In this document: piece by piece, positions 828-44,886 of the stretch
How the letters are laid out: every line of letters starts with the position of its first letter
Position numbering within the stretch: position 1 is the stretch's first letter
Assembly: GCA_031272575.1 (NCBI GenBank)
Contig: JAISTO010000036.1
Coordinates: 1-44,886 of the forward strand
Source: Treponema sp.
GTDB lineage: Bacteria > Spirochaetota > Spirochaetia > Treponematales > Breznakiellaceae
Direction of reading: 5' to 3'
Length of the DNA: 44,886 nt
The notes under the pieces: model-generated
Seen by the model: the letters and a program-made list of their open reading frames with translations, nothing else
What the model was told of the DNA's origin: nothing
Database searches by the model: none
Translations under genes and position numbers: made by a program

Positions 828-1798
828 ATAGCCTTGTTCGGCAGGCCGGTTGGCTGCCTCCAATCAGGCGGGTTTTTGTCTGCGCGTCCGCGCTGCTGAC
901 GGCGTCCTGTCCGCAGAATCCGCTTGACGTTTACAATTATGAAGGCAATAGTTCGGTTGTCGAAGATGCCGCGCCCCTGCATATCTTTCTGATCGGCCTG
1001 GATGGATGGGGGTCTTTCAGTCTTCCGCGGGCCGAGATGCCGGTGATAAAACGCATGATGGAAAACGGCGCATACACGCTGGCAGCCAAGGCGGTCATGC
1101 CCTCCCGAAGCGCGCCGAACTGGGTTTCCATGCTAAGCGGCGTCCCGCCGGCCCTGCACGGGTACACCCAAAACACCGCAAAGCCCCTGTTTACCCCGGC
1201 AATCACCGACGAAGACGGCCGTTATCCCAACGTCATCACGCTCCTGTCGAAATTGCGGCCCGACTGCGCGATAGGCGTTTTTTACGAGTGGGAGGGCATT
1301 GGGGATATTTTCCCTGTTTGCCGCGCCGCCGTGGAAGCGCAGCTTCCGGACCTTTCCTCAAACCGGGAAACGCTGGAACCCATTCTCAATTATATTGACG
1401 GTCTCAGGGCCAGCCTAAGTTTTACCTTTGTGCATTTTGACGGCGCGGATCACGCGGGTCATTCGGCGGGCTACGGTTCTGACGCTTACTACGATATGCT
1501 GCGCGGTCTGGACGGCTTTGTCGGCGAAATTGAACAGGCGGTGAGAGACGCGGGTCTGATGGATAACGCCGTCTTTATTATCAGCGCGGATCATGGCGGA
1601 AAAGGAAACGACCACGGCGCCGATACCATCGAAGAACGGGAAATCCCCCTGATCCTGTACGGAAAGAACATCAAAAGCGGAACCGTCATCCCCGGCCCGG
1701 TGGACATTTACGACATAGCGCCGTCAATAGCGGCCCTGTTCGGCATTTCCCCGCCCACCGTATGGACGGGGAATCGTTTGCCTCTTCAGAACCCGTAA
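824..1798 (+). CDS. alkaline-phosphatase superfamily, type I phosphodiesterase/nucleotide pyrophosphatase (NPP) family
   Basis: Motifs GLDGWGS, SAPNWVSMLSG, HFDGADHAGH and ISADHGGKGNDHG resemble the metal-ligand/nucleophile motifs of this family. Confidence 0.75.
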   Translation: MNSLVRQAGWLPPIRRVFVCASALLTASCPQNPLDVYNYEGNSSVVEDAAPLHIFLIGLDGWGSFSLPRAEMPVIKRMMENGAYTLAAKAVMPSRSAPNWVSMLSGVPPALHGYTQNTAKPLFTPAITDEDGRYPNVITLLSKLRPDCAIGVFYEWEGIGDIFPVCRAAVEAQLPDLSSNRETLEPILNYIDGLRASLSFTFVHFDGADHAGHSAGYGSDAYYDMLRGLDGFVGEIEQAVRDAGLMDNAVFIISADHGGKGNDHGADTIEEREIPLILYGKNIKSGTVIPGPVDIYDIAPSIAALFGISPPTVWTGNRLPLQNP

Positions 1799-3753
1799 CT
1801 CGCGCCCAGCGTGAACTGCGCGTCGAAGGCATTCACCCCCTTGATGTTCCCCTTGTTGGCCACGAACACGAAATCCGCCTGGCCGTAAACAGCAAGGCTT
1901 TTGACGCCGGGCATATCCCGCAGGATGTTCCACGCGCCTGAAAGGGACAGGGCCGTAAGGTAGTAGGGCGCGTTGCGGGCGGCGGCGTTTTCGTCGGCGT
2001 AGTTCCCCTGGTAGTGGTGGTCGGTGGGGGTGCTCTGGTAACCCGGGCGGTTCTGGTAATCACCCGCGGCATCTAAGCCAGCGTCCCAGCCGGCGCTGTT
2101 GTCCTCGATGTCGACCGCCGACCAGCGGGTCCACTTGTCGAAGGTGCCGTGCACCATGAACATGAGGTTGGCGCCGGCGCTCCACTTGCCGAAACTGCGG
2201 TACGCGGCGTTGGCGTTGAGCACGATGGCGTCGCCGCCCCAGCGGTAGCCGAGAAACTCCTCCACAAAGAGAAGCGGGGCGCCATCAGCGGCCGAATAGT
2301 AGCGGTTCGCCACCACATAGTTCAGTTCGCGGTTCTTTTTATTCGCGGTCATGCGCTGGGCGCGGAGGTACAGGTAGGGGTCGGTATAGGCGCCCTCAAA
2401 GGAGCCTGAAAGCATGCCGCCCCAGAGGGGGAAGGCCGTCTTTGCGCCCAGCATGAAGCCAAAGGCGTCGGGGTTGGCGTCGTCATCGGCGCCGGGCGCG
2501 GGCTCGCCGGGCAGGTGAAAGTCGTCCACCGCGATCTGGCCGTAGAGGTTGAGCGCCGGCAGGGCCGCCCAATCCACCTCCAGGCTCAAGAGGGAATTGG
2601 CATCGTAGGTGCGGTACAGGTTGTGCATGAGTATCGTGGGAAGGAAGTACTGCAAGTCCGCCTGCCCATCCTCCGGCTGGTACATGATAGCCTCGGAAAG
2701 GGCCATGTTCACCTTGTTGAATAGGCGCCATTCAAGCCGGTGGGCGATAAAAAAGTTCAGGCCATCGTGCGTCTGGCCGGCATCGTCATTCCAGACCACC
2801 GTCTCATTTTCATCGGTCGTGTAATACTCATTCGGCGAAGGAAAACCGGACACATTGAAAAGGTACTTGAACTGGTCATTGTAGGCCGTAAGGCGGACGT
2901 TGTTGTGATAGTCCACCTGGCTTCCCACCATAAAGTTGCCCGATTCCCCCGGCCCCCAGGAGAGCCGCTCCCGGCCGATTTCCAGGTTGAGGCCGGGCAC
3001 TCCCAGGGAAATAAACGTCCGGTTCGGGAAGTTGAAGTTCAGGTCGTTCAGTGTCGCGGGCGGCACCATGGGGATGTTTGTGCTGAAGGCGGAGGAGCCG
3101 AAAAAGGCCGATCCAACGGATTTTTTGCCGTTCTCGTCGAGAATGGCGTTGTACTTTTCGTTTCCCAGGGAAAACTCCCCGAAGCCGTAGGCGTAGGGCG
3201 TAAGGCGCAGTTCAAAATCCAGGGCCAGGAACGGCTTTGTCAGGTTCATGGGCCGAATGTAGTCGTCCAGGCGGGTAAAATCTTCGGGGTTGCTGTGAGC
3301 GTAGGCCTCGGCCGTCACCGCGCCTGAAAAGGTGAAGGCCCGCGCCGGCGCCTTGAGTGTCCGCTCCGCGTACTCGTAGGCGGCCCGCTCCCCGTCGGCC
3401 AGGTTCTCCGTATCAAGCCGCCCCAGCATGAGCAGCAACTCGTCTTCAGTCCAGGGCCCGGAGGTAGACGGCAGCGCCAGCCCCGCTCTGATATAGAGGG
3501 CTTTGATCGCCTGGTAGACCTCGCTGTCGATGGGGTAGACCTTCTGGTGGTTCCCCGCCTGCGCAAAAGCCGCCTGCGCACACAGCGCAAAGCAGAGCGC
3601 CGCCCCCGCGATTAACGCGCCGCGCCGCTTCCCCCCCCACGCGCCCCATGACGCGCTTTTTTGCGCCACGGGGGGGGGGGGACAAATTTTCACTTTAGAG
3701 AAACTGGACATATTATGAGCGCCCGGTCTCTCCATGTAACATACATTCTGCAT
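1786..3753 (-). CDS. large secreted/outer-membrane protein of unknown function with a C12 tract in its leader
   Basis: Part of ORF 1786..3891. AAAGGAG plus 6 nt precedes ATG 3753. The N-terminus is MQNVCYMERPGAHNMSSFSKVKICPPPPVAQKSASWGAWGGKRRGALIAGAALCFALCAQAAFAQ. The signal peptide lies 3' of the tract and the body is aromatic/Gly-rich. Confidence 0.6.
   Translation of the reverse strand: MQNVCYMERPGAHNMSSFSKVKICPPPPVAQKSASWGAWGGKRRGALIAGAALCFALCAQAAFAQAGNHQKVYPIDSEVYQAIKALYIRAGLALPSTSGPWTEDELLLMLGRLDTENLADGERAAYEYAERTLKAPARAFTFSGAVTAEAYAHSNPEDFTRLDDYIRPMNLTKPFLALDFELRLTPYAYGFGEFSLGNEKYNAILDENGKKSVGSAFFGSSAFSTNIPMVPPATLNDLNFNFPNRTFISLGVPGLNLEIGRERLSWGPGESGNFMVGSQVDYHNNVRLTAYNDQFKYLFNVSGFPSPNEYYTTDENETVVWNDDAGQTHDGLNFFIAHRLEWRLFNKVNMALSEAIMYQPEDGQADLQYFLPTILMHNLYRTYDANSLLSLEVDWAALPALNLYGQIAVDDFHLPGEPAPGADDDANPDAFGFMLGAKTAFPLWGGMLSGSFEGAYTDPYLYLRAQRMTANKKNRELNYVVANRYYSAADGAPLLFVEEFLGYRWGGDAIVLNANAAYRSFGKWSAGANLMFMVHGTFDKWTRWSAVDIEDNSAGWDAGLDAAGDYQNRPGYQSTPTDHHYQGNYADENAAARNAPYYLTALSLSGAWNILRDMPGVKSLAVYGQADFVFVANKGNIKGVNAFDAQFTLGASYGF
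3670..3681. repeat. homopolymer G12 (C12 on the coding strand)
   Basis: 12 consecutive G counted by hand. It encodes PPPP between the start codon and the signal peptide of the 1786..3753 gene and is currently in frame. Confidence 0.9.
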
Positions 3754-3772
3754 AGTATCTCCTTTGAAAAAG

Positions 3773-3801
3773 AGTATGCGGAAAAAGCGCGGGTATGTCA
3801 A
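3773..3801 (-). promoter_or_regulatory. candidate promoter for the 1786..3753 gene
   Basis: Minus strand reads TTGACA, 17 nt, CATACT, followed by AAAGGAG and ATG 3753. Confidence 0.4.
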
Positions 3802-3847
3802 TGGGGGCGCACGGGACACTGTCAACAAGTTAAGAAAAGGGACAACC

Positions 3848-3874
3848 GTCATTCCGCGGCTTGACCGCGGAATC
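3848..3874. repeat. REP-like palindromic repeat, short form
   Basis: gtcattccgcggcttgaccgcggaatc. Its reverse complement differs at 1 nt from the 27-mers at 9861 and 20261. A degenerate second copy lies at 3957-3978. Confidence 0.8.
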
Positions 3875-4009
3875 TCTACCAAAATGGCCATTTTGAGGAG
3901 TAGATTGCGTAGTTCGGTTAAAACCGAACTATGTCAAGCCCGGCAAAGTAACAATCGTCATTCCGCGTCTTGCGCAATTAACGGTGTTTCACGTGAAACA
4001 TCTGGCGCG

Positions 4010-11304: not shown

Positions 11305-11371
11305 ATATTTCCCCAAAAATGTAACTTTTTAGGGGATATTTTGTATTAATTACAGGTACTGGAGGTATAGT

Positions 11372-21395: not shown

Positions 21396-22498
21396 TACTG
21401 CTGCGGCTGCATAGGCATGACGATGTGGAAGTAGTCCGACTCGGGCTCAGGCTTCATGGTGATAGCCTTGCTGTTATCCGTAAAGCGGACAACCACCTCT
21501 TCGCTTTCCATAGGCCGCAGCGGTTCGTCGATGTACCGGCAGTTGAACGATAGGGAAATGTTTTCCCCGCTGTACTCGCAGGAAATTTCTTTCCGCGCCT
21601 CGCCGATTTCGCTTTCGGTCGAGTAGACACTAATCGTGTCCTGGCTCAACTCGAAGAAGATGCGATGGGATTTCGATTCCATCATGGGTGACACCGTCTT
21701 GAGCGCGTCGAGCAGTTCCTGCCGATCTACCTTAAAGTATAAGGTTTGATCCTCAGGAATTACCCTGCGGTAGTTGGGGAAATTGCCCTCGATAAGGACG
21801 GACGACAGTTTGTACGACCCGAAAGAGATAAAAATGTTCCGCTCGGTGAGCGAAAGCGAAATTTCGCCTTCGTCGCCTGCCCGTTTCCTCACCACCTCGA
21901 GGATTTTCGGTGGGATAATGACCGGCTTGAAGTCTTTTATCCCCTGCGCCAATTCTTTTTTGATGAGGGAAAGCCTCCTGCCGTCTGTGGCCACCATGAT
22001 GAGGAAGTTTTCCTCTTTTTCGAAGAAAACGCCGTTCATAAAGTAGCGCGTTTCGTCATCTGACACAGCAAAGATGACGTTGGTGATCATGTCCTTGATT
22101 TCCGCCGCGGGAACCGCAAAGACATCCTCGCCTGCATCGGGGAAATCGGGGAACTTTTCGCTGGTGACGCTGTTCAACTGATACTTAACCCTTTTGGAGG
22201 GCATTTTGATCAGTACTTTTGAGTCAGCCTGCTCAAATTCGAGTTCTCCGTCCGGTATGGTGTTCAAAATTCCGCAGAATTTTCCACCAAGTACCGTGAC
22301 CGATCCCGGCTCGACGACCTCAACGGGCACAGTGGTCTCGAAATTGACCTTGTTGTCCGTTGCCTTGATTTTCAACGAGTCATTGGCAGCCTCCAGATAC
22401 ATGTTCGACAGTATCGAGGTCGTGTTCTGAGACCCAATGATCTCGTTGGCAATGGCGACTTCTTTAAGAAGCACGCTCCGTTCGCAAGTAAACTTCAT
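21392..22498 (-). CDS. dnaN: DNA polymerase III beta sliding clamp
   Basis: 368 aa with a typical N-terminus MKFTCERSVLLKEV. Position between dnaA and recF. Confidence 0.95.
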   Translation of the reverse strand: MKFTCERSVLLKEVAIANEIIGSQNTTSILSNMYLEAANDSLKIKATDNKVNFETTVPVEVVEPGSVTVLGGKFCGILNTIPDGELEFEQADSKVLIKMPSKRVKYQLNSVTSEKFPDFPDAGEDVFAVPAAEIKDMITNVIFAVSDDETRYFMNGVFFEKEENFLIMVATDGRRLSLIKKELAQGIKDFKPVIIPPKILEVVRKRAGDEGEISLSLTERNIFISFGSYKLSSVLIEGNFPNYRRVIPEDQTLYFKVDRQELLDALKTVSPMMESKSHRIFFELSQDTISVYSTESEIGEARKEISCEYSGENISLSFNCRYIDEPLRPMESEEVVVRFTDNSKAITMKPEPESDYFHIVMPMQPQQY

Positions 22499-22731
22499 GT
22501 TACTCTCCTATTATTGTGTTAATTAAAATAAAGAAGAAATAATAGTAGGCAAGGTGAATATGTGAATAACCTGCCTAAATGCTTATGTTAAAAGGATTTA
22601 GCATCCTGCTAACATGAGAATAAAGGCACTGTTTATTAGCACATTTTTACCTTACTTTACAATTTTTCTTCGTTATCGTCATTATTCACATAGTTTAACA
22701 TACTAGTAACATTTTTTCAAGAGGATATTGA
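22499..22731. other. AT-rich dnaA-dnaN spacer with DnaA boxes (candidate oriC part)
   Basis: TGTGAATAA (22561-22569), adjacent GGTGAATAT (22553-22561) and TTATTCACA (22682-22690). Strongly AT-rich against a GC-rich genome. Confidence 0.6.
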
Positions 22732-24153
22732 TTAGTTTCGCATGCTGTATTCTCTTGCTTTGCGTTTGCAGTTTTCCACGATTTCGTAGAAATCCGGCTC
22801 GGTTTTGAGGCGGGTGTCTACTTTTCTGCACGCAAAAATAACGGTGGCATGGTCTTTTCCGAATTCCGCGCCGATTTCGGTCGTGGAGTATTCGGTAATT
22901 TCCCGCGCCAGGTACATGGCGATATGACGGGGCGTTACCACGTTTTTGCTCTTTTTTTTGCTCCGCAGATCGTTGTGCGACAGGTGAAACTCGTCCGCGA
23001 CGGCCTTAAGGATGATGTCGATGGACATCGTTGGCTGACGCGGCGAGCCGATAAGGTCGCGCATCTGCTTTTGCGCATCGACAAGGGTGATGGGCCTGCC
23101 CGTAAGGTCCTGATACGCGATAAGGTTTTTGAAGGCCGAAAGGAGGTCCCGTACGTTGCTGGCGACATTTTTCCCCACCAGGTCGATTATTTCGGCGGGA
23201 ATATTGGCTTTTTTTGTTTCGTTGATCGAGCGCAGAATGAGGATACGGGTCTCGTACTTTAGGGGTTTTAAATCCACCTTGAGTCCGGACTCGAAGCGGG
23301 TGGTAAGCCGTTCGGGAATCTTTTTTAAATCTGAAATGAGCCGGTCGCAGGTAAATACGACCTGTTTTTTCGAGTCTGCCAGCGCGTTGAAGGTATGGAA
23401 TAACTCCTCCTGCGTTTGTTCTTTTCCTTCGAAAAATTGAATGTCGTCGAGCAAAAGCACATCGGTGGTGTAGCGAAATTTGTTTTTGAAGGAATTCATC
23501 TTTTGGGAGTTCATGGCCTCCAGAAACTCGTTTAAAAAGTTTTCCGCGGTAATATAGGTGACGCGGAGGTTAGAGTTGAAGTGAATGTAGTTCCCGATGG
23601 CCTGCATAAGGTGCGTTTTGCCCAGCCCCACGCCGCCGTAAATGAGCACCGGATTGTAGGCAGAGCCGGGATTCCGGGCAATGACATCCGCGGCTTTTGC
23701 CGCGTACTTGTTGTCCTCGCCGATAATGTAATTGTCGAAGGTGAAATCCTCGCGGAGGCTCGGCAGTTGCTTTCGCGGCGCCCTGGGGGCCTCTGTGGGG
23801 TGAATGTCTTTTGACTGCGGGGCGCTTGCCTTGTCCGGCGCTTCGGCAGGCTTCGGCTGCTGGCCGCTTGCAACGGCAGCCGCGGCTGCCGCATCTTCAT
23901 CGACCTTCAGGCTTACCGTGACTGTCGTTCCTGCCAGAGACGACAGTTTTTCCTGCAGCCGCGCTAAAAACTTGCGCTTAAACTGCGTCAAAAAGAAGGC
24001 CGAGGGAACCGAAACCTGCATTTCTTCTGGCCCGGAGGCGCTGAGAAAGCCGATCTTGCCCAGCCAGATAAAGTAATCGTCCTCTCCGCATTCAACGCGG
24101 AGTTCTTCGAGCGCCTCGTCAAAGAGAGCCTTGTAATCCCCTTTCTTAGCCAT
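22732..24153 (-). CDS. dnaA: chromosomal replication initiator DnaA
   Basis: GGVGLGKTHLMQAIGN Walker A, LLLDDIQF, and a C-terminal DNA-binding domain HIAMYLAREITEYSTTEIGAEFG..DHATV. Confidence 0.95.
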   Translation of the reverse strand: MAKKGDYKALFDEALEELRVECGEDDYFIWLGKIGFLSASGPEEMQVSVPSAFFLTQFKRKFLARLQEKLSSLAGTTVTVSLKVDEDAAAAAAVASGQQPKPAEAPDKASAPQSKDIHPTEAPRAPRKQLPSLREDFTFDNYIIGEDNKYAAKAADVIARNPGSAYNPVLIYGGVGLGKTHLMQAIGNYIHFNSNLRVTYITAENFLNEFLEAMNSQKMNSFKNKFRYTTDVLLLDDIQFFEGKEQTQEELFHTFNALADSKKQVVFTCDRLISDLKKIPERLTTRFESGLKVDLKPLKYETRILILRSINETKKANIPAEIIDLVGKNVASNVRDLLSAFKNLIAYQDLTGRPITLVDAQKQMRDLIGSPRQPTMSIDIILKAVADEFHLSHNDLRSKKKSKNVVTPRHIAMYLAREITEYSTTEIGAEFGKDHATVIFACRKVDTRLKTEPDFYEIVENCKRKAREYSMRN

Positions 24154-35524: not shown

Positions 35525-38500
35525 TCAAAACGCCCGCACAGGCCGAACCTGACCAGGAATGTCCTTCATGATGTAAGACAAGATCAGGTCATTCGAACTG
35601 CCATCGGAATTCAGACACCATGCATAGCTTCTGTTGCTCTCGGATGAAGACGCGTATATGGGCCAAATATTCGTAAAGTTTCCAGCCCCCTGCTGTTTCA
35701 GATTGATGTTCATCTGATTTATCTCATCCTTGCTCGGCAGGAACCAGTCATCGTAACCGCCGTACTCGTAATCCGCACAGGCCTGCGCCGCAAGGTGTAA
35801 GCCAGAACCTAACTGAGGTGTGCCATGATTATGCGTTACCAATGCAGCTGTGTTTGTTGCGCCTGTACCGATATCTGTCCCGGTACCGCCACACAATGTG
35901 CCATATCCACCCCACTGGTATGCTGTTGCCAAATCGGCAGGCGCGGCTTCGAGGTAATGGCAAGTAATGCTGTCAGAAACAAAACCGGTGGTGTCGGCAT
36001 AGAATATCCATCCTCCCGCAGGACCAGTATCCCCTATCTGGTATGCCAGGGTTGTCTGACTCACAGCAGCACTCAATGCGCCTTCTCCTTCCGCGTTCAC
36101 CGCGCTTACCTTGTAGTAATAAGTTGTTTCTTTTGTAAGACCAGTGTCGGTATACGAAGTTTCAGTAATGCCTGAAGTAATAGGAGTAGTGTAGGGACCA
36201 TCAACGCTGTCTGCCCGATAGACCGTGTAGGTGTCTGCACCAGTCACCGCATTCCAGTTAAGTACTAATATGCTGCTCAGGGATTGCGCGGCCGCGGTTA
36301 ATCCATCAGGCGCGCCAGGTTTTGTGATTGTGTTCACTACGGTACTGTAATCGGTGACCACTGTATCGTGCCATGCCTTCACCCACACATAGTAAGTCGT
36401 TCCGTTTGAAAGACCGGTAAGCGTATGCGGACTGGTCACCACGCTCAGCCTCACCGCCGCACTAGAGATATTTGCGGTGTGATAATACAGGTCATACGCG
36501 GCGGCGCCGTCCGTGCTGTCCCACGAAACCTGTATGCTCTCGTCAGATAAAGTAACCGCGTTTACCCCGGTGGGCGCGGCAGGAGCGGGAACTCCGCTTG
36601 CGCTTGCGCTCAATGGGCTTTCCCCCAGAGCGTTCTTCGCTTTCAACCACACATAGTACAGCGTCCCGATGTTAAGATCGGCAATGACATGGGGTATCGT
36701 GACATCGCTTTCCTTCGTTGCGGCAGTGCTGTCATTCGTTGTACTGTAATAGAGATCATATCCTGTCGCGCCATCAACCTCTGTCCATGTTACCATGAGT
36801 CCACCCACACCCGCTGGGGTTACCTCGATCGCGGTTGGTGCATTTACGCGAGTCTTCCCGCTCGCGCTCGCGAACGCGCCGGTTATCGCGCCGTGCAGTG
36901 CCCGCACCCACACCGAGTAAGTCGTGTTCGCGGCGAGGCCGCTGAGCGTCGCGTTTATTGCCGCGGCCTCGACGCTCTGCGCCGTGTCGGGGCTGCTTCC
37001 GGTGCTGTAACGCACCTCGTACTTTTCCGCGCCGGCTATGGCGTCCCACGAGACCGCGAGTGAGGTATTGCTGAGCGGCGCGGCCTGCACGTTGGCGGGC
37101 GCGGGCGCGGTTGTGGTCACCTCTATCGTGTCCGTCCACAGCGCGCCCCCGTTGTTGAACGTGAGCGTGAGCGGCAGCACGGTTCCCATGGGGCAGCCGG
37201 CGCTTGCGCTAAAGGTGAAGGTTCCATATAGGCTTCCCCCGTAAAAGAACACTATATTCGCGTTCGTGCTCTGCGTGCTGTTGAGCGTTTTATAGTAACC
37301 GCCGGACAGATTTCCGACCGACAGTATAGTATTTTGACCGATGGTAATATACTCACTCTCTGACGAAAGCGTCACCTGGGCGCTGGAGATAGTGGTCGTT
37401 GTATTGTTCTTTATACGAATGTCCAAATACGCTGACGCGCCGGGAGTCACATTAACGATATTCTTATCGATGAGCTCCTTCAAAGCAAAACCGGTTATCG
37501 ACAGGGGATAGGGCGCGGTGTTTCCCAGCGTTACGGTGCAGCAGTCAATATCGTTTTCATGGATGTCCGCCATAATCTGCCCGTCAAGAAGAGTCGCGTC
37601 CGCCTCGGTATCATTGGGTTCATTGATCTTGAACGCGCTAAACGAGGAGAAGTTCGTCTGCGGCATCGTGTTTATGCCGAGTGAATAGATCGCCTCGCTG
37701 GATTCGGCGGTGCCGGAAATTACGGCAAGGTAAGGCGCTGACGACCAGGGCATGGTCACGCTTGAACGATAGACCGTCCCGTCATGCGCGGTGCTGAACC
37801 GACACGCGCCGGAGAGCGGGCTCAGAATAAGGCCCGCCACGGGGTACTGTGACGCGGCGTTGAAAGTTACCGGCGTTTTGAAAAAGCGCACGGACACCGA
37901 GTCCGTCCAGGTTTTGGGATGCTGCGGATCGGTCGTGGCATCGGTTATCGTAATGGAGATTTTTTTGAAGACCGCATCCGCGTCAACCGGCGTACAGCCG
38001 ATGGTTATTTCGCTGGTGGACACGGTCTCGCCCGGCTTAAGGGTCCCGGTGCAGAGCCGATTCGATATGCCGGACTGCGTTTGCGTTGCAAGTCCGTCCT
38101 CAAACGCAAGCGTGTAACTCGGCGCGTAGCAGCCCGCGTTTCCCGTGTTGGTCACGTTGATGGTGAAGGTGAACGTGTCGGCCCCCGCGTACCCATACCG
38201 CGCGTTGACCGACGTGCCTGCCGGCGCGATGCGCGCTGGCGCGATGCGCGCCTTGAAGTTAACGCCCCCGCCCGTGAGGTGGAGCGTCCCGAGGTGGTCA
38301 CCGTTCGCGCCGGGCGTTACGCGCGCGGTGTCACCTGCGGCGCGCAGTTCGTACTCGTCCCCCGGGATAAGGCCCTGCGCGGTAAAGGTGCCGTCGCTTG
38401 CGGTTGTTGCCGTCACCGTGTTGGCCGCGTCGTTCAGGTTGACCAGAGTCACCTCGAGGCCTGCGACGCTCCGCCCCGCGCCGGCGTCAGCGAGTGTGCC

Positions 38501-38806
38501 GCTCACCTGCGCGTTGGCGACCCGCGAGGCGTAGAGGAAGCACGCGCTGCCCGCATTCGTCACCCTGATGACCCGCGCGGACTGCTTTTCGAGGCGCGGC
38601 GTCCCGGGGTAGGATTCGCCGTTTACGGTGATGGTATTGCTGGTAATGTACCACGCTTCGTCCGCGTCTATGCGGAGCCATTCACCCCAAAACTCGCTCC
38701 CGTAGCGGGGGCCGGTTTCGGAGCCGGTAGGGGTTTTACACGCCGCCCCGCAGAGGACGGCGAGCGCGAGGAGGAGTCCCCGTTTTACGCGATTTTTTGC
38801 AGGACG
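35525..38806 (-). CDS. giant surface lipoprotein: CarboxypepD_reg-like domain, four Fn3 repeats, C-terminal DUF1566-like domain; 5' end interrupted by C11 tract
   Basis: The track ORF 35525..38563 starts at GTG. The frame stays open upstream to the tract and there encodes RPAKNRVKRGLLLALAVLCGAACK (lipoprotein signal). Four repeats of about 90 aa have the Fn3 pattern (L.V.W....GA..Y.+YY....Y.V.V.A). The tail YDDWFLPSKDEINQM resembles DUF1566. Confidence 0.8.
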   Translation of the reverse strand, partial: RPAKNRVKRGLLLALAVLCGAACKTPTGSETGPRYGSEFWGEWLRIDADEAWYITSNTITVNGESYPGTPRLEKQSARVIRVTNAGSACFLYASRVANAQVSGTLADAGAGRSVAGLEVTLVNLNDAANTVTATTASDGTFTAQGLIPGDEYELRAAGDTARVTPGANGDHLGTLHLTGGGVNFKARIAPARIAPAGTSVNARYGYAGADTFTFTINVTNTGNAGCYAPSYTLAFEDGLATQTQSGISNRLCTGTLKPGETVSTSEITIGCTPVDADAVFKKISITITDATTDPQHPKTWTDSVSVRFFKTPVTFNAASQYPVAGLILSPLSGACRFSTAHDGTVYRSSVTMPWSSAPYLAVISGTAESSEAIYSLGINTMPQTNFSSFSAFKINEPNDTEADATLLDGQIMADIHENDIDCCTVTLGNTAPYPLSITGFALKELIDKNIVNVTPGASAYLDIRIKNNTTTTISSAQVTLSSESEYITIGQNTILSVGNLSGGYYKTLNSTQSTNANIVFFYGGSLYGTFTFSASAGCPMGTVLPLTLTFNNGGALWTDTIEVTTTAPAPANVQAAPLSNTSLAVSWDAIAGAEKYEVRYSTGSSPDTAQSVEAAAINATLSGLAANTTYSVWVRALHGAITGAFASASGKTRVNAPTAIEVTPAGVGGLMVTWTEVDGATGYDLYYSTTNDSTAATKESDVTIPHVIADLNIGTLYYVWLKAKNALGESPLSASASGVPAPAAPTGVNAVTLSDESIQVSWDSTDGAAAYDLYYHTANISSAAVRLSVVTSPHTLTGLSNGTTYYVWVKAWHDTVVTDYSTVVNTITKPGAPDGLTAAAQSLSSILVLNWNAVTGADTYTVYRADSVDGPYTTPITSGITETSYTDTGLTKETTYYYKVSAVNAEGEGALSAAVSQTTLAYQIGDTGPAGGWIFYADTTGFVSDSITCHYLEAAPADLATAYQWGGYGTLCGGTGTDIGTGATNTAALVTHNHGTPQLGSGLHLAAQACADYEYGGYDDWFLPSKDEINQMNINLKQQGAGNFTNIWPIYASSSESNRSYAWCLNSDGSSNDLILSYIMKDIPGQVRPVRAF

Positions 38807-38816
38807 GGGGGGGGGG
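38806..38816. repeat. homopolymer G11 (C11 on the coding strand)
   Basis: Counted by hand: 5 G ending line 38801-38810 plus 6 G starting 38811. It lies between the candidate start codons and the lipoprotein signal peptide. Confidence 0.9.
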
Positions 38817-39003
38817 CAAATTGATTCAGTTGTTGCTCTGACGCTGGAGATTTTCGAGAAAATGCCCGCCGCGCCGTCTCAGCGGGAGGGACCGCGAGAC
38901 AGGCAAAAAGAGCGCCGCCTGCCGCGAAGCGGGGGGCGCGGGCAGTCCGAGGGACTGCGACAGCCGCCAAGGCTGCCAAGGAAAAGATATTTTTCATATT
39001 GGA

Positions 39004-39032
39004 AGTATAGCGGGGTTTTGGGGGAAAGTCAA
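39004..39032 (-). promoter_or_regulatory. consensus promoter in leaderless layout, reading toward the lipoprotein gene
   Basis: Minus strand reads TTGACT, 17 nt, TATACT, 6 nt, ATG 38997. Confidence 0.5.
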
Positions 39033-39054
39033 GAGGGCACGATGCCCTCTTGAC
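39028..39054. promoter_or_regulatory. perfect 12-3-12 palindrome carrying back-to-back -35 hexamers
   Basis: gtcaagagggca-cga-tgccctcttgac. The left arm supplies TTGACT on the minus strand and the right arm supplies TTGACA on the plus strand. Confidence 0.6.
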
Positions 39055-39140
39055 ACTAATCTGCTTTTTAGTGCAAAATAAAGAGACATCGCGATGCTGC
39101 GCAGGCAGCACTAATCTTGAATGGCGCTCAAGGAGCATAT

Positions 39141-40495
39141 ATGGCTAATTTTAGGCAAGGGCAAGTTATCCCCCTGGCGGGGGGGGGGGCGAGGCAGAAA
39201 TTGTTCGCACTTTGGGGGAGGGCGGACAAGGCACGGTGTATGAGGTTCGCGTTGGCGGTAAGCCTTATGCGCTGAAATGGTACCACGCGGGAAAACTGAA
39301 GGACAAAGCGGCCTTTCGCGAAAACCTTCGATGCAATATCGAAGAGCCGGAGCGGAGCATGGCGGATTGTCCCATGTTTCTGTGGCCCAAGTTCCTGACT
39401 GAGGAACAGGACGGCAGTTTCGGGTATGTGATGGACCTGCGGCCGCCGGACTACACTGATTTTCCGGCGATTCTGAATCGCAAGGACCGAAAGGGGCAGC
39501 GGGTGGAGTTTGCCTCCACCGAAACAATGATCGCTGCCGCCTTGAATCTGGTGAACGCTTTCCGCGCGCTGCATCGCAAGGGGCTTTCCTACCAGGATTT
39601 AAACGACGGAAACTTCTTCATCAATATTGATACAGGAGCCGTGCTGATTTGTGACAACGACAATGTCACGCCGGACGGCGACGTAAACTCAGGCGGCATA
39701 GGGGGCAAACCCGGGTACATGGCGCCGGAAATTGTCACAGGCAAGGCGCAGCCTTCCGAGCGTACCGATTGCCATTCACTCGCGGTTGTTCTTTTCAAAT
39801 TATTCTTTCGTCATAGTCCGCTGCAAGGGGCGGCTTACGAAAAACTTCCCTGCATGACCGAAAAGCGCGAGATGGAACTGTTCGGGACGAATCCGGTATT
39901 TGTCTACGATCCGGATGATGATACAAACCGGCCGGTCAACGGCGTACACAACAATGTGATAAAACTCTGGCCGCTCTTCCCCGCGTTTTTCAAAGACGCG
40001 TTTGTTCTCTCGTTTGCTCAAGGGATGAAAGCCCCGCAGCGCCGCATCGTCGAAAACGAGTGGCAAAAAATCCTCGTGCGTCTCCGCGACGAATGGTATG
40101 TTACCTGCGTGTCCTGCGGGCGCGCCATTTTTCTGCACCCGGAAAACAAAGAGGCGGGGCTTCGCTGCGGCGGCTGCGGGTCACAGTCTACCTATCCGCG
40201 AAGCCTTTCTATCAAGAAGGGCGCACTCGTGTACACGGTGCCGCTCTTCCCCGCAAAAAAACTCTACGACTGGCACACCACCGAGTCGAGTGAAGACTTC
40301 ATCACCATAACGGGCGAAGTGGTGATGAATAAAAACAATCCCTCGCTTTGGGGAATCAAGAATTGCTCAAACGAGGCGTGGCGCATGGTCACCCCCGACG
40401 GCACAGCAAAAGAAGTGCCCGCCGAGGGCGCTGTTCCTATCGGGGCGGGCGTTAAGGTCATCTTTAACGGCCTTGACGGAATAATAACTCAGTAA
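39141..40495 (+). CDS. Ser/Thr protein kinase with C-terminal zinc ribbon; frameshifted at G11 tract (track ORF 39212..40495)
   Basis: AGGAG plus 5 nt precedes ATG 39141. After the tract a different frame encodes GEAEIVRTLGEGGQGTVYEVRVGGKPYALKWY (Gly-rich loop and Lys), HRKGLSYQDLNDGN, GKPGYMAPE and CVSC...CGGC. A +1 change in the tract joins the two frames. Confidence 0.8.
39179..39189. repeat. homopolymer G11
   Basis: Counted by hand: 2 G ending 39171-39180 plus 9 G starting 39181. It begins in codon 13 of the kinase reading frame that starts at ATG 39141. Confidence 0.9.
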
Positions 40496-40510
40496 AGGAG
40501 AATCTCAAAA

Positions 40511-41242
40511 ATGAGTGACGCAATTTACGGCAATGTGGAGGGCATCATACGCAGGCAGATGGTGCTGTTCTTTTTAATTGACACCTCCGGCAGTATGCAG
40601 GGGCAGAAAATCAGCGCGGTCAATACGGCCATCCGCGAAGTGGTACCGGAACTGGCGGACATCGGGGGCGCGGACATCGATCTGAAGATCGCGGTGCTTG
40701 AGTTTTCGATGGGCTGCAAATGGCAGAACCCCGCGGGGCCCGTATCGGTGGACGATTTCATGTGGAACAACCTCAGCGCGGAAGGCGGCACCGATATGGG
40801 AACGGCCTTTCGGGAATTGAACGAGCGCCTCTCGCGCAACTCGTTTCTAAAAGCGCCGTCGGCATCGGTCGCGCCGGTGATACTGCTCCTTTCGGACGGC
40901 CAGCCGAGTGACGATTACCAAAGCGCGCTTGCCGCCCTCAAAAACAACAACTGGTTTAAGAGCGCGGTAAAAGTCGCGCTCGCTATTGGCAGTGACGCTG
41001 ACTGCAATGTACTCGCGGAATTCACCGGCACCAGCGAAACCGTGCTTAGCGCCTATACGCCGGATATCCTGCGCAAGATGATACGCACCGTGTCGATTAC
41101 CTCCGCGCAGATCGGTTCCCGCAGCCAGCCCTTACAGGAAGGGGATATTGTGAGCAAGCAGGACACCATGGCAGCGGAGATCAAAAATCTCAAGCAGACG
41201 GATCCGGATTACAATTCCGCGGATACGCTGGAAGGCTGGTAA
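40511..41242 (+). CDS. von Willebrand factor A domain protein (TerY-like)
   Basis: MIDAS motif in FFLIDTSGSMQG, later GGTDMG and LLSDGQPSD. AAAGGAG SD. Confidence 0.85.
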   Translation: MSDAIYGNVEGIIRRQMVLFFLIDTSGSMQGQKISAVNTAIREVVPELADIGGADIDLKIAVLEFSMGCKWQNPAGPVSVDDFMWNNLSAEGGTDMGTAFRELNERLSRNSFLKAPSASVAPVILLLSDGQPSDDYQSALAALKNNNWFKSAVKVALAIGSDADCNVLAEFTGTSETVLSAYTPDILRKMIRTVSITSAQIGSRSQPLQEGDIVSKQDTMAAEIKNLKQTDPDYNSADTLEGW

Positions 41243-42105
41243 TGTACCTCAGTTTTAGCGCCCGCGCACAGGGGGACAGCCACAAGGAAAAGGACATCCC
41301 CTGCCAGGATGCGGTCTTCACGTACGTCGATCAAAAGACCGGCGGCCTCGCGATTGTGGCAGACGGCCATGGAAGCGAAAAACACTTTCGCAGCGACGTG
41401 GGATCTGCACTTGCGGTTACTGTTGCGCATACGACAATCGTGGAGTTCCTTCATATATTGAATGATGGCTCCATGCGCCGCGGTGCATTTGACCAGCGCT
41501 ATACCGATGAAATCACCATGATGCAGGAGCAACTGGCGCAGCTTGAACGGACGATTATTACGCGGTGGCGTTCCGCGGTACTGCAGCATTTTGCGGCACA
41601 CCCGCTCAGCGAGCGTGAACAGGCACTCTGTACGCGGGAAAACCTTACGCTCACCGATGAGGATGCACAGGTCCGTGTGTACGGTACGACTCTTATTGCC
41701 GCACTCGCGCATAGCAAGTTGTGGTTTGTCATTCAGATCGGGGACGGCAAATGCGTAGTGCTTGATGACGAAGGCACTCCGTATTTCCCGCCGGAACTCG
41801 ACGATGAAAGTCTTGCCGGAGGCCAGACGACTTCCCTGTGCGACTCGGATGCGGCAGGTCATTTTCGCTGTGATTTCGGCTTCGAGCGCATTAAGGGCAT
41901 TACCGTGGCCACCGACGGCGTAAGCGACTCTTTTTTGCCCGAGGAGTATCTCAAACTGAATGCCCGTCTCTTTGCCGATTTTCTCGCTAACCACAAGAAG
42001 GCGCAAAAGGGGGTGGAGCAGTCTATTGCGGTATGGTCAACAAAAGGCTCCCGCGATGATGTATCCATGGCGGGAGTCTTTTACAAAAATGGTTTATTGG
42101 AGTGA
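41242..42105 (+). CDS. PP2C-family protein phosphatase
   Basis: IPCQDAV, LAIVADGHGS and VATDGVSD motifs. The start overlaps the vWA stop (TAATG). Confidence 0.8.
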   Translation: MYLSFSARAQGDSHKEKDIPCQDAVFTYVDQKTGGLAIVADGHGSEKHFRSDVGSALAVTVAHTTIVEFLHILNDGSMRRGAFDQRYTDEITMMQEQLAQLERTIITRWRSAVLQHFAAHPLSEREQALCTRENLTLTDEDAQVRVYGTTLIAALAHSKLWFVIQIGDGKCVVLDDEGTPYFPPELDDESLAGGQTTSLCDSDAAGHFRCDFGFERIKGITVATDGVSDSFLPEEYLKLNARLFADFLANHKKAQKGVEQSIAVWSTKGSRDDVSMAGVFYKNGLLE

Positions 42106-42120
42106 AAGGAGAAGTATAGC

Positions 42121-43368
42121 ATGAACACGAATTTGTTAACCGCGATAAAGGCGTTGGCGGCGAAGGGCGCTGATGTGTTTAGTGACCTGAAGCGCGTTGA
42201 CGAAAGTCTGCCGGTGTTTGCCAACAAGGAGGCTGCGGCAGAGCGCAGGGCTTTTCTTGCGGTGCTGGCATCGGGGCTTCCCGCGAAGTTGCGCGAGACC
42301 AAGGATACCGCGGCGCGCGCAAGTCTGGTCAACCGGGCCGCGCATTCGCTTTCCGGCGCGAACGAGGCGCCGCCAGCGCTGGCGCGGGAAATCGCCGCGC
42401 TCGTCGAGGCCCTCTGTCCCGCAAAAAGCGCCGCTGCCTCGCCCCCCGCGCCGCCGGTACCGCCGCGGCAGGTTCCGGCCGCGGGGGCGCCGCTGCCGCA
42501 AAGTCCCGAGGCGGCCAAGCCGCCAGCGCGGGCCCTGCGGCTGAGCCGAAAAACGGTGTTTTTCGCTCTTGCGGCAACGGGAGGTGGGCTCGTTACCGAA
42601 AGTATCTGTGAGTGCATACCGTGGTTTAACCAGCATGGGGGGACTTTTTGGTCGGTCATTGTTGAGACTGCCGTATGGTTTGGGGTGATTGCACTGGGCT
42701 TAATCGCGTGTCTTCTCGCGGCCCAGAGTGGGTATCTGAAAAAGCCGCCGAGCGCCCCCACTGTGGTAAAGGCGGTGCTTTTGGGAGTCCTTTCCGGCGC
42801 GGCCGCTGGCGGGCTTGCACAAGCGGTGTTTGCATACACTTCGCAGATTTCAACGGCAGTAGAAATCGTCAGCCGCATACTCTGCTGGGGCTTTGCGGGC
42901 GCGGGGGTAGGGCTTGGTACGAGTTTCTTCGTTCCCAACTATCCGATAAAGCGCTCCCTGCCCGCCGGACTCGTTGGGGGGCTTTTGGGGGGCGTGCTGT
43001 TCCGCGCCTCATTCGGCATTATGCCGGAAGGCATCGCCCGGGTAGTGAGCATCGCCATTCTGGGGCTGTGCATAGGCGCGACTATCGCCATAGCCGAGGA
43101 AATCCTCCGTGAAGCATGGATCACGGTTGACTGGGGGCACAACGAACGCGTGAATGTCACGCTCGGTACCAGGCCGGTGGTACTTGGTTCCGCGCCGGAA
43201 GCGGACATCTTTCTTTCGCGGCAGAACTATCCTGCGGTTGCGCTTGTCGTCAGTATAGACGGACAAAAAGTGATTGTCGACAACAAACTGAACGGCCAAC
43301 GAACCGAAATGGCAAACGGCAGCGAGTTGAGTTTGGGGACAGTCAAAGTTACCGTACACAAACGGTAA
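42121..43368 (+). CDS. membrane protein: shared N-terminal domain, Pro/Ala linker, multi-TM region, C-terminal FHA domain
   Basis: Hydrophobic segments between about residues 150 and 330. The C-terminus VVLGSAPEADIFLSRQNYPAVALVVSIDGQKVIVDNKLNGQRTEMANGSEL has the FHA pattern. SD AAAGGAG. Confidence 0.75.
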   Translation: MNTNLLTAIKALAAKGADVFSDLKRVDESLPVFANKEAAAERRAFLAVLASGLPAKLRETKDTAARASLVNRAAHSLSGANEAPPALAREIAALVEALCPAKSAAASPPAPPVPPRQVPAAGAPLPQSPEAAKPPARALRLSRKTVFFALAATGGGLVTESICECIPWFNQHGGTFWSVIVETAVWFGVIALGLIACLLAAQSGYLKKPPSAPTVVKAVLLGVLSGAAAGGLAQAVFAYTSQISTAVEIVSRILCWGFAGAGVGLGTSFFVPNYPIKRSLPAGLVGGLLGGVLFRASFGIMPEGIARVVSIAILGLCIGATIAIAEEILREAWITVDWGHNERVNVTLGTRPVVLGSAPEADIFLSRQNYPAVALVVSIDGQKVIVDNKLNGQRTEMANGSELSLGTVKVTVHKR

Positions 43369-43383
43369 CAAAAGGAGCATACT

Positions 43384-44745
43384 ATGAACACAGTGTTATT
43401 GACCGTCATTCAAAAAATGGTCGCTGAGTCAGGCGAATCGGTACTTGCTGACTCGCGGCGTGTTGCAGGTTACCTTGCGGATTTTGCCGCCAGGGAGCCG
43501 AAGGCGCAGCGGAACACGCTGGTGAAGTGCCTGGAACAGGGGGCTTACGCCGCGCTGAAAAGGGCTGCTCCCCATGAGCGCGGCGCGGTGAAGGAGCGGC
43601 TGGCGCGCAGGCTGCATACCGATGAGGGGTTTGATCGGTCTCTCTGTGAAGACAGCGTCAACCTGCTGGCCGTTGTGTTGTTCGGTCACGGCGAAGCGGC
43701 TGCGGGGGAAACCGCGGCGGCAATTCCGTCTACGGGGGACGAGTGGGTAACGGTACCGGAAGCGCGGAAGGCGGCGTTGGCGCAGGGGGATGCGGGCAAC
43801 AGGCCAATACCGCAAACTGCCGTGGCGAGGAAGGAACGGAAACGGTACTTGTCAGTGGGGATAGCGGCTTCCGTGCTTGTGCTTGGACTGGGTGTTGTCT
43901 TTTGGATGAACCGATACAACAATGCGGGCAACGCATCCCACCTTGGTCCAACTTTGGACATGGTGCGCATACAGGGTGGCACGTTCACGATGGGGAGCCC
44001 GTCGTCGGAGCCGGATCGTGAGGACGATGAGGTGCAGCATCGGGTGACGCTGAGTTCGTTTTACATGGGGAAGTACGAGGTCACTCAGAAGGAGTGGCAG
44101 GCGCTCATGGGGACGAATCCCAGTTCCTTCAAGGGTGACAACTTGCCGGTGGAGTGCGTGAGTTGGTACGATGCGGTGGAGTACTGTAACGCGCGTAGCA
44201 AAAAAGAAGGGCTTACGCCTGCGTACACGATAAATAAGACTCGACAGGATCCAAACAACACCAGCAGTTATGACAGTCTCAAGTGGACGGTGACCTGGAA
44301 CCGGAAGGCGAACGGGTACCGGTTGCCGACGGAGGCGGAGTGGGAGTACGCCTGCCGCGCCGGGACGACGGGGCCGTTCAACACGGGGAACAACATTACG
44401 ACGAGCCAGGCGAACTATAACGGGAACTATCCCTACAACGGGAACGCGAAGGGGCAGTATCGGGAGAAGACGACGGCGGTGGGGAGTTTCCAGCCCAATG
44501 CCTGGGGCTTGTACGATATGCATGGCAATGTCTGGGAGTGGTGCTGGGACTGGTACGGGAATTACTCAAGCGGCGCCCAGACGGACCCCGAAGGCCCAAC
44601 GGGCCCCGCCTCTTCGTGGTCGCGCCGCGTTCGCCGGGGCGGCAGTTGGTACAACAGCGGCCAGTACCTGCGTTCGGCCAACCGGGGCTACTACAGCCCG
44701 GGCAACCGGCTCTACTACCTCGGTTTTCGGCTGGTGCGTCCCTGA
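43384..44745 (+). CDS. membrane-anchored FGE-sulfatase (SUMF1/C-type-lectin fold) domain protein with DGR-VR-like C-terminus
   Basis: Shared N-terminal domain, one TM (YLSVGIAASVLVLGLGVVFWM), then GGTFTMGSP, YRLPTEAEWEYACRAG, GNVWEWCWDWY and RGGSW...GFRLVRP. Confidence 0.85.
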   Translation: MNTVLLTVIQKMVAESGESVLADSRRVAGYLADFAAREPKAQRNTLVKCLEQGAYAALKRAAPHERGAVKERLARRLHTDEGFDRSLCEDSVNLLAVVLFGHGEAAAGETAAAIPSTGDEWVTVPEARKAALAQGDAGNRPIPQTAVARKERKRYLSVGIAASVLVLGLGVVFWMNRYNNAGNASHLGPTLDMVRIQGGTFTMGSPSSEPDREDDEVQHRVTLSSFYMGKYEVTQKEWQALMGTNPSSFKGDNLPVECVSWYDAVEYCNARSKKEGLTPAYTINKTRQDPNNTSSYDSLKWTVTWNRKANGYRLPTEAEWEYACRAGTTGPFNTGNNITTSQANYNGNYPYNGNAKGQYREKTTAVGSFQPNAWGLYDMHGNVWEWCWDWYGNYSSGAQTDPEGPTGPASSWSRRVRRGGSWYNSGQYLRSANRGYYSPGNRLYYLGFRLVRP

Positions 44746-44782: not shown

Positions 44783-44811
44783 TTGACAAGCAGTTGCTAT
44801 TATAGTATAGT
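44783..44811 (+). promoter_or_regulatory. consensus promoter in leaderless layout
   Basis: TTGACA, 17 nt, TATAGT, 6 nt, ATG 44818. Confidence 0.5.
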
Positions 44812-44817
44812 GTCTAT

Positions 44818-44886
44818 ATGGCATACTCAATCGATACACGGGAGATAGCCCTGCGGTACTTGGAAACGCACACCTATCAGAATACA
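44818..44886 (+). mobile_element. 5' end of an IS630-family-like transposase gene (truncated by the window edge)
   Basis: MAYSIDTREIALRYLETHTYQNT resembles the MxYSxDLRxxV HTH N-terminus typical of IS630-type transposases. Only 23 codons are visible. Confidence 0.45.

Follow-up and report, generated by a model that had tools for sequence, protein, structure and literature searches.

Within a stretch of 44,886 nucleotides from Treponema sp. (assembly GCA_031272575.1, contig JAISTO010000036.1, positions 1 to 44,886; called the window throughout), five plus-strand open reading frames (ORFs) spanning positions 39141 to 44745, here named K, V, P, F and S, form a compact operon. We consider it probable that these genes specify a TerY-P-like phospho-switch, composed of a kinase, a vWA protein and a PP2C phosphatase, together with interchangeable partners recruited via a shared adaptor domain, Ndom, and that they are one example of a widespread, horizontally spread four-part system. 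The fourth part would be one or several partner proteins, all consisting of Ndom with widely differing modules attached; such proteins form a large, variable set beside the triad in many gut microbes. Novel features are the Ndom family of putative adaptors, the almost invariable association of this family with the present branch of triads, the combinatorial variety of its partners and a poly-G run inside the kinase gene. An earlier note, made from the letters of this DNA, missed the Ndom that genes 4 and 5 have in common and by which they are in fact linked to the triad.

Reading of frames confirmed the layout which that note had described. V, F and S are each preceded by a gap of 15 nucleotides with an AAGGAG-type Shine-Dalgarno site, and the stop of V and the start of P overlap as TAATG. 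Homologues were obtained for all five products with expect values (E) from 1e-80 to 0, and the five genes are therefore not due to chance. The coordinates of all features are collected in Table 1.

Table 1. Features of the K-V-P-F-S operon and its 5' region in the window.
Feature	Position	Strand	Description
Promoter candidate	39050..39079	+	sigma-70-like, TTGACA-18-CAAAAT, 10/12 consensus matches (from consensus scan only)
Gene 1 (K)	39141..40495	+	Ser/Thr kinase, zinc ribbon, C-terminal domain rich in beta strands; carries a frameshift in the assembly
11-G homopolymer	39179..39189	+	codons 13-16 of K; 12 G (GGGG) restores the frame
Gene 2 (V)	40511..41242	+	stand-alone vWA protein, predicted cytoplasmic, complete MIDAS motif
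Gene 3 (P)	41242..42105	+	PP2C-type phosphatase
Gene 4 (F)	42121..43368	+	Ndom, Pro-rich linker, six transmembrane helices, probable FHA-like beta domain
F, Ndom	42121-42450	+	
F, Pro-rich linker		+	
F, transmembrane helices	~42547-43110	+	six, glycine-rich
F, beta domain	~43120-43365	+	probably FHA-like
Gene 5 (S)	43384..44745	+	Ndom, one transmembrane segment, FGE-sulfatase (C-lectin-like) domain
S, Ndom	43384-43728	+	
S, transmembrane segment	~43849-43917	+	
S, FGE-sulfatase domain	~43957-44739	+	

The assignments made earlier for the three triad proteins were borne out by profile searches. K matches Pkinase in a Pfam domain search (E 1.1e-15), and alignment of its homologues shows no variation in the catalytic Lys, in the D-x4-N loop or in DND and APE. 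Its C-terminal part contains a conserved CxxC...CxxC zinc ribbon and a beta domain of about 10 strands and about 100 residues. An AlphaFold2 (AF2) model based on an alignment of 69 sequences was obtained with high confidence (pLDDT, the predicted value in the local distance difference test, 93.2; predicted template modelling score, pTM, 0.91), and searching with this model by Foldseek returned eukaryotic-type kinases (E 1e-10), all matches being to the kinase domain and none to the C-terminal beta domain. For the latter, profile comparison with the PDB gave no significant match either (best NifT/FixU, E 0.089), and a direct comparison with the C-terminal domain of F revealed no similarity. V was recognised as a vWA protein (VWA 2.5e-9, VWA_2 5.6e-9) with the residues of the metal ion-dependent adhesion site (MIDAS) intact (DTSGS...T...D) and no transmembrane segment in the topology prediction, and P matches PP2C_2 (6.8e-33). 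With the corresponding proteins of E. coli, V shares 30% identity with YegL (BLASTP, E 2e-9), K resembles YegI (E 5e-8) and P resembles PphC (E 2e-5), three weak but concordant similarities. As judged from these sequence features, the kinase/PP2C pair is predicted to be active, the vWA protein MIDAS-competent, and all three proteins cytoplasmic.

The TerY-P triad defined by Anantharaman, Iyer and Aravind (2012) consists, according to a later summary (PMC11090510), of a TerY-like vWA protein, a PP2C and a Ser/Thr kinase with C-terminal zinc ribbon. In the window, one operon encodes a TerY-like vWA protein with MIDAS, a PP2C, its gene next to that of the vWA protein, and a Ser/Thr kinase that ends in a zinc ribbon; all of them are predicted to be active, and the equation of the trio with TerY-P in the earlier note agrees with the definition as given there. 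The two differ in that the order is K-V-P here and V-P-K there, that the window kinase has a further beta domain, about 100 residues long, that Ndom partner genes accompany the triad here and that no Ter, McrBC/CoCoNuT or restriction genes are found nearby. They also differ at the level of models: of the TerY-P components in PADLOC only TerY matched, weakly (V, 3.6e-4), none matched P, and the kinase was drawn to generic defence kinases; the relative L015 behaved alike and no PADLOC system was matched in the window. The E. coli yegL-pphC-(yegJ)-yegI genes encode the same three protein types, and their kinase YegI, a reportedly membrane-associated protein of 648 residues, and phosphatase PphC are biochemically characterised (bioRxiv 10.1101/819920, 10.1101/303594). 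However, identities to the Treponema proteins are only 25-38% over partial lengths, the order is V-P-K and no Ndom partner is present. Next to GAP1-N2 GTPase systems of actinobacteria, Kaur et al. (2020; PMC7159879) described a kinase with zinc ribbon and beta-strand-rich domain, a PP2C and a stand-alone vWA protein. By description this kinase architecture and this trio are identical to those of the window, although no GTPase, MoxR or STAND NTPase is found here.

Homologues of K number more than 3,497. From a scan of a one-genome-per-species collection, the best 80 of 592 kinase relatives were examined as loci; these span Treponema, Spirochaetaceae (many of them termite-gut metagenome-assembled genomes, MAGs), Ruminococcus, Oscillospiraceae, Alistipes, Bacteroidota and Bathyarchaeia. 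The order K-V-P is found in 80/80 loci wherever the flanks allow it to be read, with inserted genes in a few, and it recurs in nine IMG/VR contigs and in a Prevotella plasmid, so that the kinase-first order, which had been put forward as new, is instead the common arrangement. None of the sequenced phages carries the system. In Bathyarchaeia MAGs (L006, Candidatus Bathycorpusculum soli, P0065) the K-V-P triad is 52-55% identical to that of Treponema, and these archaeal triads reflect either inter-domain transfer or binning error.

Conservation is of a different kind beside the triad. The same five-gene set was found in no other locus examined, and the idea that FHA and FGE domains are hard-wired into one operon has to be given up, since the neighbours of the triad are variable. 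V-P-F adjacency recurs in two metagenome contigs and an orthologue of S lies directly 3' of K in locus L090; otherwise the genes beside the triad differ from locus to locus in the manner of a variable array. In Ruminococcus and Oscillospiraceae the gene 3' of the PP2C gene (L025:13402-14646, L029:13231-14466 and 31 loci like them) codes for a protein in which a conserved N-terminal domain, about 120 residues in length, is combined with a long low-complexity repeat of PQQGGY and a basic tail; its product has no Pfam match, and it is a separate, lineage-specific accessory gene.

What the variable genes have in common is their N-terminus. The first ~110 residues common to F and S constitute a predicted all-alpha domain, Ndom, for which a hidden Markov model (HMM) was built by iteration on the loci and which this model recognises in F at 2e-26 and in S at 1e-32. 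Genes with Ndom flank the triad in 66 of the 80 loci. They lie directly upstream of K in 52 loci, typically as zinc ribbon-Ndom-LRR_5 proteins in Ruminococcus and relatives, downstream of the triad in 12 and on both sides in 2; the close relatives L002, L007, L023 and L083-L090 have arrays of 2-7 Ndom genes, sometimes placed between K and V. Ndom is fused to LRR_5, TPR, Sel1, WD40, ankyrin and WG repeats, beta-helix, FGE-sulfatase and LysM modules, and further to transglutaminase core, TM2, DUF805, DUF975, GYF, zinc ribbons and membrane modules. In locus L090 the triad PP2C itself (10251-11432) carries a partial Ndom at its C-terminus (HMM 4e-06), a Rosetta-stone link between phosphatase and partner domain. 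Defined as K followed directly by V and P with at least one adjacent Ndom gene, the system is present in the window, where the Ndom genes are F and S.

An exhaustive profile search yielded 448 Ndom cluster representatives, mostly with Ndom starting at residue 1, and the domain has no model in Pfam, NCBIfam or PADLOC. Secondary structure prediction, of low confidence, gives six helices, and near-invariance is limited to one Gly and one Asp. Other searches returned little: a word-index search with Ndom alone retrieved nothing, one with an alignment of 21 Ndom sequences retrieved 5 proteins only, and metagenome scans found 4 short contigs with a closer Ndom alignment and nothing with F. A marginal match of Ndom to ferritin (E 1.7e-4) was judged to reflect helical-bundle composition and was not used, and matches of Ndom-ankyrin proteins to PADLOC PDC-M72A were due to the ankyrin repeats and gave no system match. 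On the Prevotella sp. E2-28 plasmid pE2-28 (L102, 6558-14319) the annotated order is helix-turn-helix (HTH) regulator, "TerY-C metal binding domain" protein, kinase, vWA, PP2C, three hypothetical proteins, FGE-family protein and 3'-5' exonuclease; the N-termini of two pE2-28 proteins resemble divergent Ndom copies below the HMM threshold. Away from any triad, an Ndom gene at L101:233-556 adjoins GmrSD/HNH and PIN genes.

The two partners in the window illustrate how different the attached modules can be. In F, the six predicted transmembrane helices contain many small-xxx-small motifs, and full-length orthologues are present in L083 and L086 (E 1e-83 and 3e-88). The multi-spanning character claimed for gene 4 thus stands, whereas its C-terminal FHA domain is backed by sub-threshold matches: the C-terminus of F matches Yop-YscD_cpl, a family of the FHA clan, at E 3.5e-3 and those of two orthologues at 7e-3 and 1.6e-2, all below the Pfam cut-off of 33 bits, and a profile of four C-terminal sequences compared with the PDB gave as top matches the FHA-like domain of EscD (E 0.077) and YscD (1.4), both non-significant. 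An AF2 model from the single sequence shows 9 strands in the beta domain, its confidence (pLDDT 46.6) being too low for fold searching. FHA domains bind phosphothreonine via conserved Gly-Arg, Ser-x-x-His and Asn-Gly residues. In the alignment of four orthologues, G-S-S replaces the G-R of this set, Ser-x-x-His is missing and only N-G is kept. To judge by these results, the C-terminal domain of F probably has an FHA-like fold of the YscD type and is unlikely to read phosphothreonine; because the binding residues are missing, a role of F as reader of a phosphothreonine mark is unsupported.

S has a single strong transmembrane segment and an FGE-sulfatase domain (PF03781, 1.2e-58, model positions 4-255 of 255), both as predicted in the earlier note. 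Because RKERKR precedes the transmembrane segment on its N-side, the FGE domain should face outward. Its best NCBIfam matches are to the non-FGE members GldK/PorK and PvdO. True FGE possesses a catalytic cysteine pair after the RGGS motif; no such pair follows the RGGSW motif of S, where RGGSWYNSGQYLRSANR is without Cys, and by this evidence the domain is non-catalytic. FGE-type partners are found in four other loci (L090, L056, L093 and the Prevotella plasmid pE2-28). Those of L090 and L056 are without a transmembrane segment and so their FGE domain is cytoplasmic; the extracytoplasmic location proposed before, while consistent with the topology of S, is therefore a local feature and not a property of the system. 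Diversification of the FGE C-terminus by a diversity-generating retroelement (DGR) was considered and rejected, as the window contains no template repeat.

These observations bear on the receptor scheme suggested earlier, a fixed five-gene module in which the FGE domain senses a ligand outside, kinase and PP2C write and erase a phosphothreonine mark and the FHA domain of F reads it. All five domain types do cooperate in the T6SS (type VI secretion) threonine-phosphorylation pathway (TagQRST-PpkA-PppA-Fha1), which combines a kinase, PpkA, bearing an extracellular vWA domain with the PP2C PppA, the FHA protein Fha1 and the FGE-family periplasmic protein TagR (COG1262), and the positive-inside topology of S and the FHA-clan matches of F would fit such a scheme as well. 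In the window, however, no T6SS genes are seen, the vWA is a separate and cytoplasmic protein, the domain of F is without the Arg and Ser/His that bind phosphothreonine, and partners are interchangeable between loci, where most of them are soluble repeat proteins; together with the restriction of the five-gene set to this one locus and the missing transmembrane segment of the FGE orthologues, this makes the scheme quite improbable. Nor would its logic be new. Besides the T6SS pathway, there is a precedent in the Deinococcus radiodurans operon DRA0331-DRA0334 (vWA, Ser/Thr kinase, FHA, PP2C), for which a push-pull kinase/phosphatase scheme was proposed (bioRxiv 10.64898/2026.01.23.701218). By gene content this operon likewise joins an FHA-domain gene to vWA, kinase and PP2C; it differs in that the FHA protein is canonical and soluble, the PP2C has its own KI-FHA domain and there are no membrane partners, FGE or Ndom.

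In the explanation that we prefer, Ndom would act as a docking adaptor which brings each partner to the triad, where phosphorylation would be controlled reversibly by kinase and PP2C. The vWA protein might serve as a metal-dependent clamp that binds the partner via its metal site, the nearly invariant Asp in Ndom being a candidate ligand. Partner modules would supply input, in the form of ligand or protein binding, or output, in the form of membrane action: S as a membrane-anchored, non-catalytic FGE/lectin-like domain facing outward, and F as a membrane protein of six glycine-rich helices whose cytoplasmic FHA-like domain would act independently of phosphorylation. Who phosphorylates whom, the docking by Ndom and the physiological role are what we infer from this arrangement. 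The principle recalls that of effector-associated domains (EADs) set out by Kaur et al. (2020; PMC7159879), in which a small shared domain ties changing effectors or sensors to a core and FGS/FGE domains serve as non-enzymatic binders. Most partners here are non-enzymatic binders and a role as sensor or neutralising binder, as proposed for FGS domains and EAD-linked effectors, therefore fits. Unlike in EAD systems, Ndom is not among the domains matched and, one PP2C fusion excepted, it is absent from the core proteins, for which reason a homotypic contact of the EAD type is not evident. As a more tentative extension, Ndom could be an undescribed adaptor family through which a large and diversifying repertoire of pattern-recognition-type modules (LRR, WD40, TPR/Sel1, ankyrin, WG, beta-helix, FGE-lectin, LysM) is coupled, along with membrane effectors, to a hub of Ser/Thr kinase, vWA and PP2C. 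The system would then be a kinase-based equivalent of those prokaryotic immune receptors that centre on an NTPase, and would be phase-variable here via poly-G.

The reading frame of K depends on its 11-G homopolymer. In the assembly, the frame from ATG 39141 stops at 39275, the intact kinase frame starts at 39155, and TTG 39212 is the annotated start. If one G is added (12 G), ATG 39141 comes into the kinase frame and the N-terminus becomes MANFRQGQVIPLAGGGGEAEIVRTLGEGGQG, which aligns residue for residue with all orthologues and places four invariant positions upstream of the annotated TTG start. Relatives encode the glycines at this site by interrupted GGC/GGG codons and the run is thus lineage-specific. 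The window contains three G/C runs of at least 11 nucleotides as compared to 0.055 expected, all three in 5' coding ends, the two others preceding signal peptides of large surface proteins, and K with its 11 G in codons 13-16 has the long 5' homopolymer by which phase-variable contingency genes are recognised. The pattern of runs favours slipped-strand switching of K; such phase variation of the kinase, which we infer from this pattern, would leave the switch off at 11 G unless slippage to 12 G occurred. The earlier statement that the homopolymer gates the operon is thereby narrowed: 11 G does break and 12 G does repair the kinase frame, but because the run lies inside kinase codons and each of the remaining genes is served by a Shine-Dalgarno site of its own, what it gates directly is the kinase and not the operon as a unit.

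Alternatively the locus may be decaying or silent, the 11-G run being a fixed inactivating frameshift or a sequencing artefact and no switch, in which case the operon, if the run is real, would currently be without function here. Identical runs of 11 G are found in the assembly and in an independent Logan contig, neither of the repaired proteins was found among 15 billion catalogued proteins, and the run is restricted to the lineage, all of which is compatible with this alternative. Against it, the four downstream genes and the remaining kinase ORF are intact with conserved catalytic residues, and the excess of long runs in 5' coding ends is that of contingency loci, so that we regard a silent locus as unlikely.

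Both other runs belong to minus-strand genes. One is an 11-nucleotide run at 38806-38816 (C11 on the minus strand) situated just before a lipoprotein-type signal peptide (KRGLLLALAVLCGAAC) of a divergently encoded FN3/Lcl_C surface protein of 1012 residues (35525-38996); it is out of frame with both candidate starts, 12 C leading to ATG 38996 and 10 C to TTG 38819, and the Logan contig L001 starts directly after it. The other, a C12 run at 3670-3681 (ORF 1786..3891), is in frame and encodes PPPP in the leader, before the signal peptide, of a secreted protein of about 650 residues, and is followed about 30 nucleotides later by G8 on the coding strand (C8 on the plus strand, 3631-3638).

Several findings weigh against the model of a triad with Ndom-recruited partners. 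Ndom has no conserved Ser or Thr and is thus probably not itself a conserved phospho-acceptor. An Ndom gene at L100:9001-9576 has no triad within 9 kb and lies beside CsgG/LpoB-like genes, and 14 of the 80 loci are without Ndom at the HMM threshold, some of these being contig ends or cases of divergent copies as in the Prevotella plasmid. The 5' neighbours of the operon in the window are housekeeping and surface genes and do not form a defence island. Finally, the off form with 11 G is the sole form on record, in two assemblies, and K may be a pseudogene or its run length an assembly error.

A related question is whether the system serves in defence, as an anti-phage system of the TerY-P class and abortive-infection type in which Ndom-repeat proteins would sense phage components by pattern recognition, with the kinase and membrane partners of the kind of F in the part of effectors. 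TerY-P-like modules have been validated as stand-alone defence (Gao et al., 2020, as cited in PMC11090510), and in PADLOC the kinase domain of K matches two kinases of defence systems, PD-T4-6 and mad6, with values of about 1e-11 to 1e-14. The display of variable LRR, WD40, TPR, ankyrin and FGE binders on one adaptor parallels the way in which EAD and FGS domains are used in conflict systems, and the patchy spread across phyla, including archaeal MAGs and plasmids, the toxin-antitoxin and transposase neighbours in L090 and the GmrSD/PIN genes in L101 point in the same direction. On the other hand, PADLOC matches TerY alone and weakly and has no model matching P, F, S or Ndom, no effector of the nuclease or NADase type is present, the surroundings are housekeeping genes in the window as well as in L087, and the system is missing from sequenced phages. 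An anti-phage function is accordingly regarded as possible but rather less probable than the recruitment of interchangeable partners as such. The other physiological role considered is signalling connected with the envelope and with host interaction.

The ten ORFs 5' of the operon comprise dnaA, glycogen, AMP-binding, HAD, exonuclease and FN3 surface genes, with no Ter genes and no DNA-processing or restriction modules among them; on the 3' side the window ends about 140 nucleotides after S. The candidate promoter of the operon sits about 60 nucleotides 5' of ATG 39141. Between it and a divergent promoter-like site on the minus strand (39032-39004), the palindrome AGAGGGCA-cga-TGCCCTCT at 39031-39049 is a possible shared operator for both. 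The dnaA gene at 22732-24153 (Bac_DnaA 2.4e-62) adjoins the kilobase of lowest GC content in the window (22000-23000, 0.445), and the operon is probably located about 15 kb from the replication origin. Downstream of S, a strong sigma-70-like promoter (TTGACA-17-TATAGT, 11/12) in 44783-44886 precedes a further ORF, MAYSIDTREIALRYLETHTYQNT, which is truncated where the window ends and may resemble the N-terminus of IS630-type transposases.

One form of the common TerY-P-type triads is a validated anti-phage system. In a large branch of such triads, genes for a single small shared domain are nearly always close by, the domain being joined to dozens of binding or membrane modules, and this linkage offers a testable handle on input and output of the triad. 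As the system is present in cultivable rumen Ruminococcus strains, experiments are feasible. For the organism from which the window derives, the poly-G runs suggest that a spirochaete of the termite-gut type stochastically switches surface proteins as well as a signalling kinase on and off.

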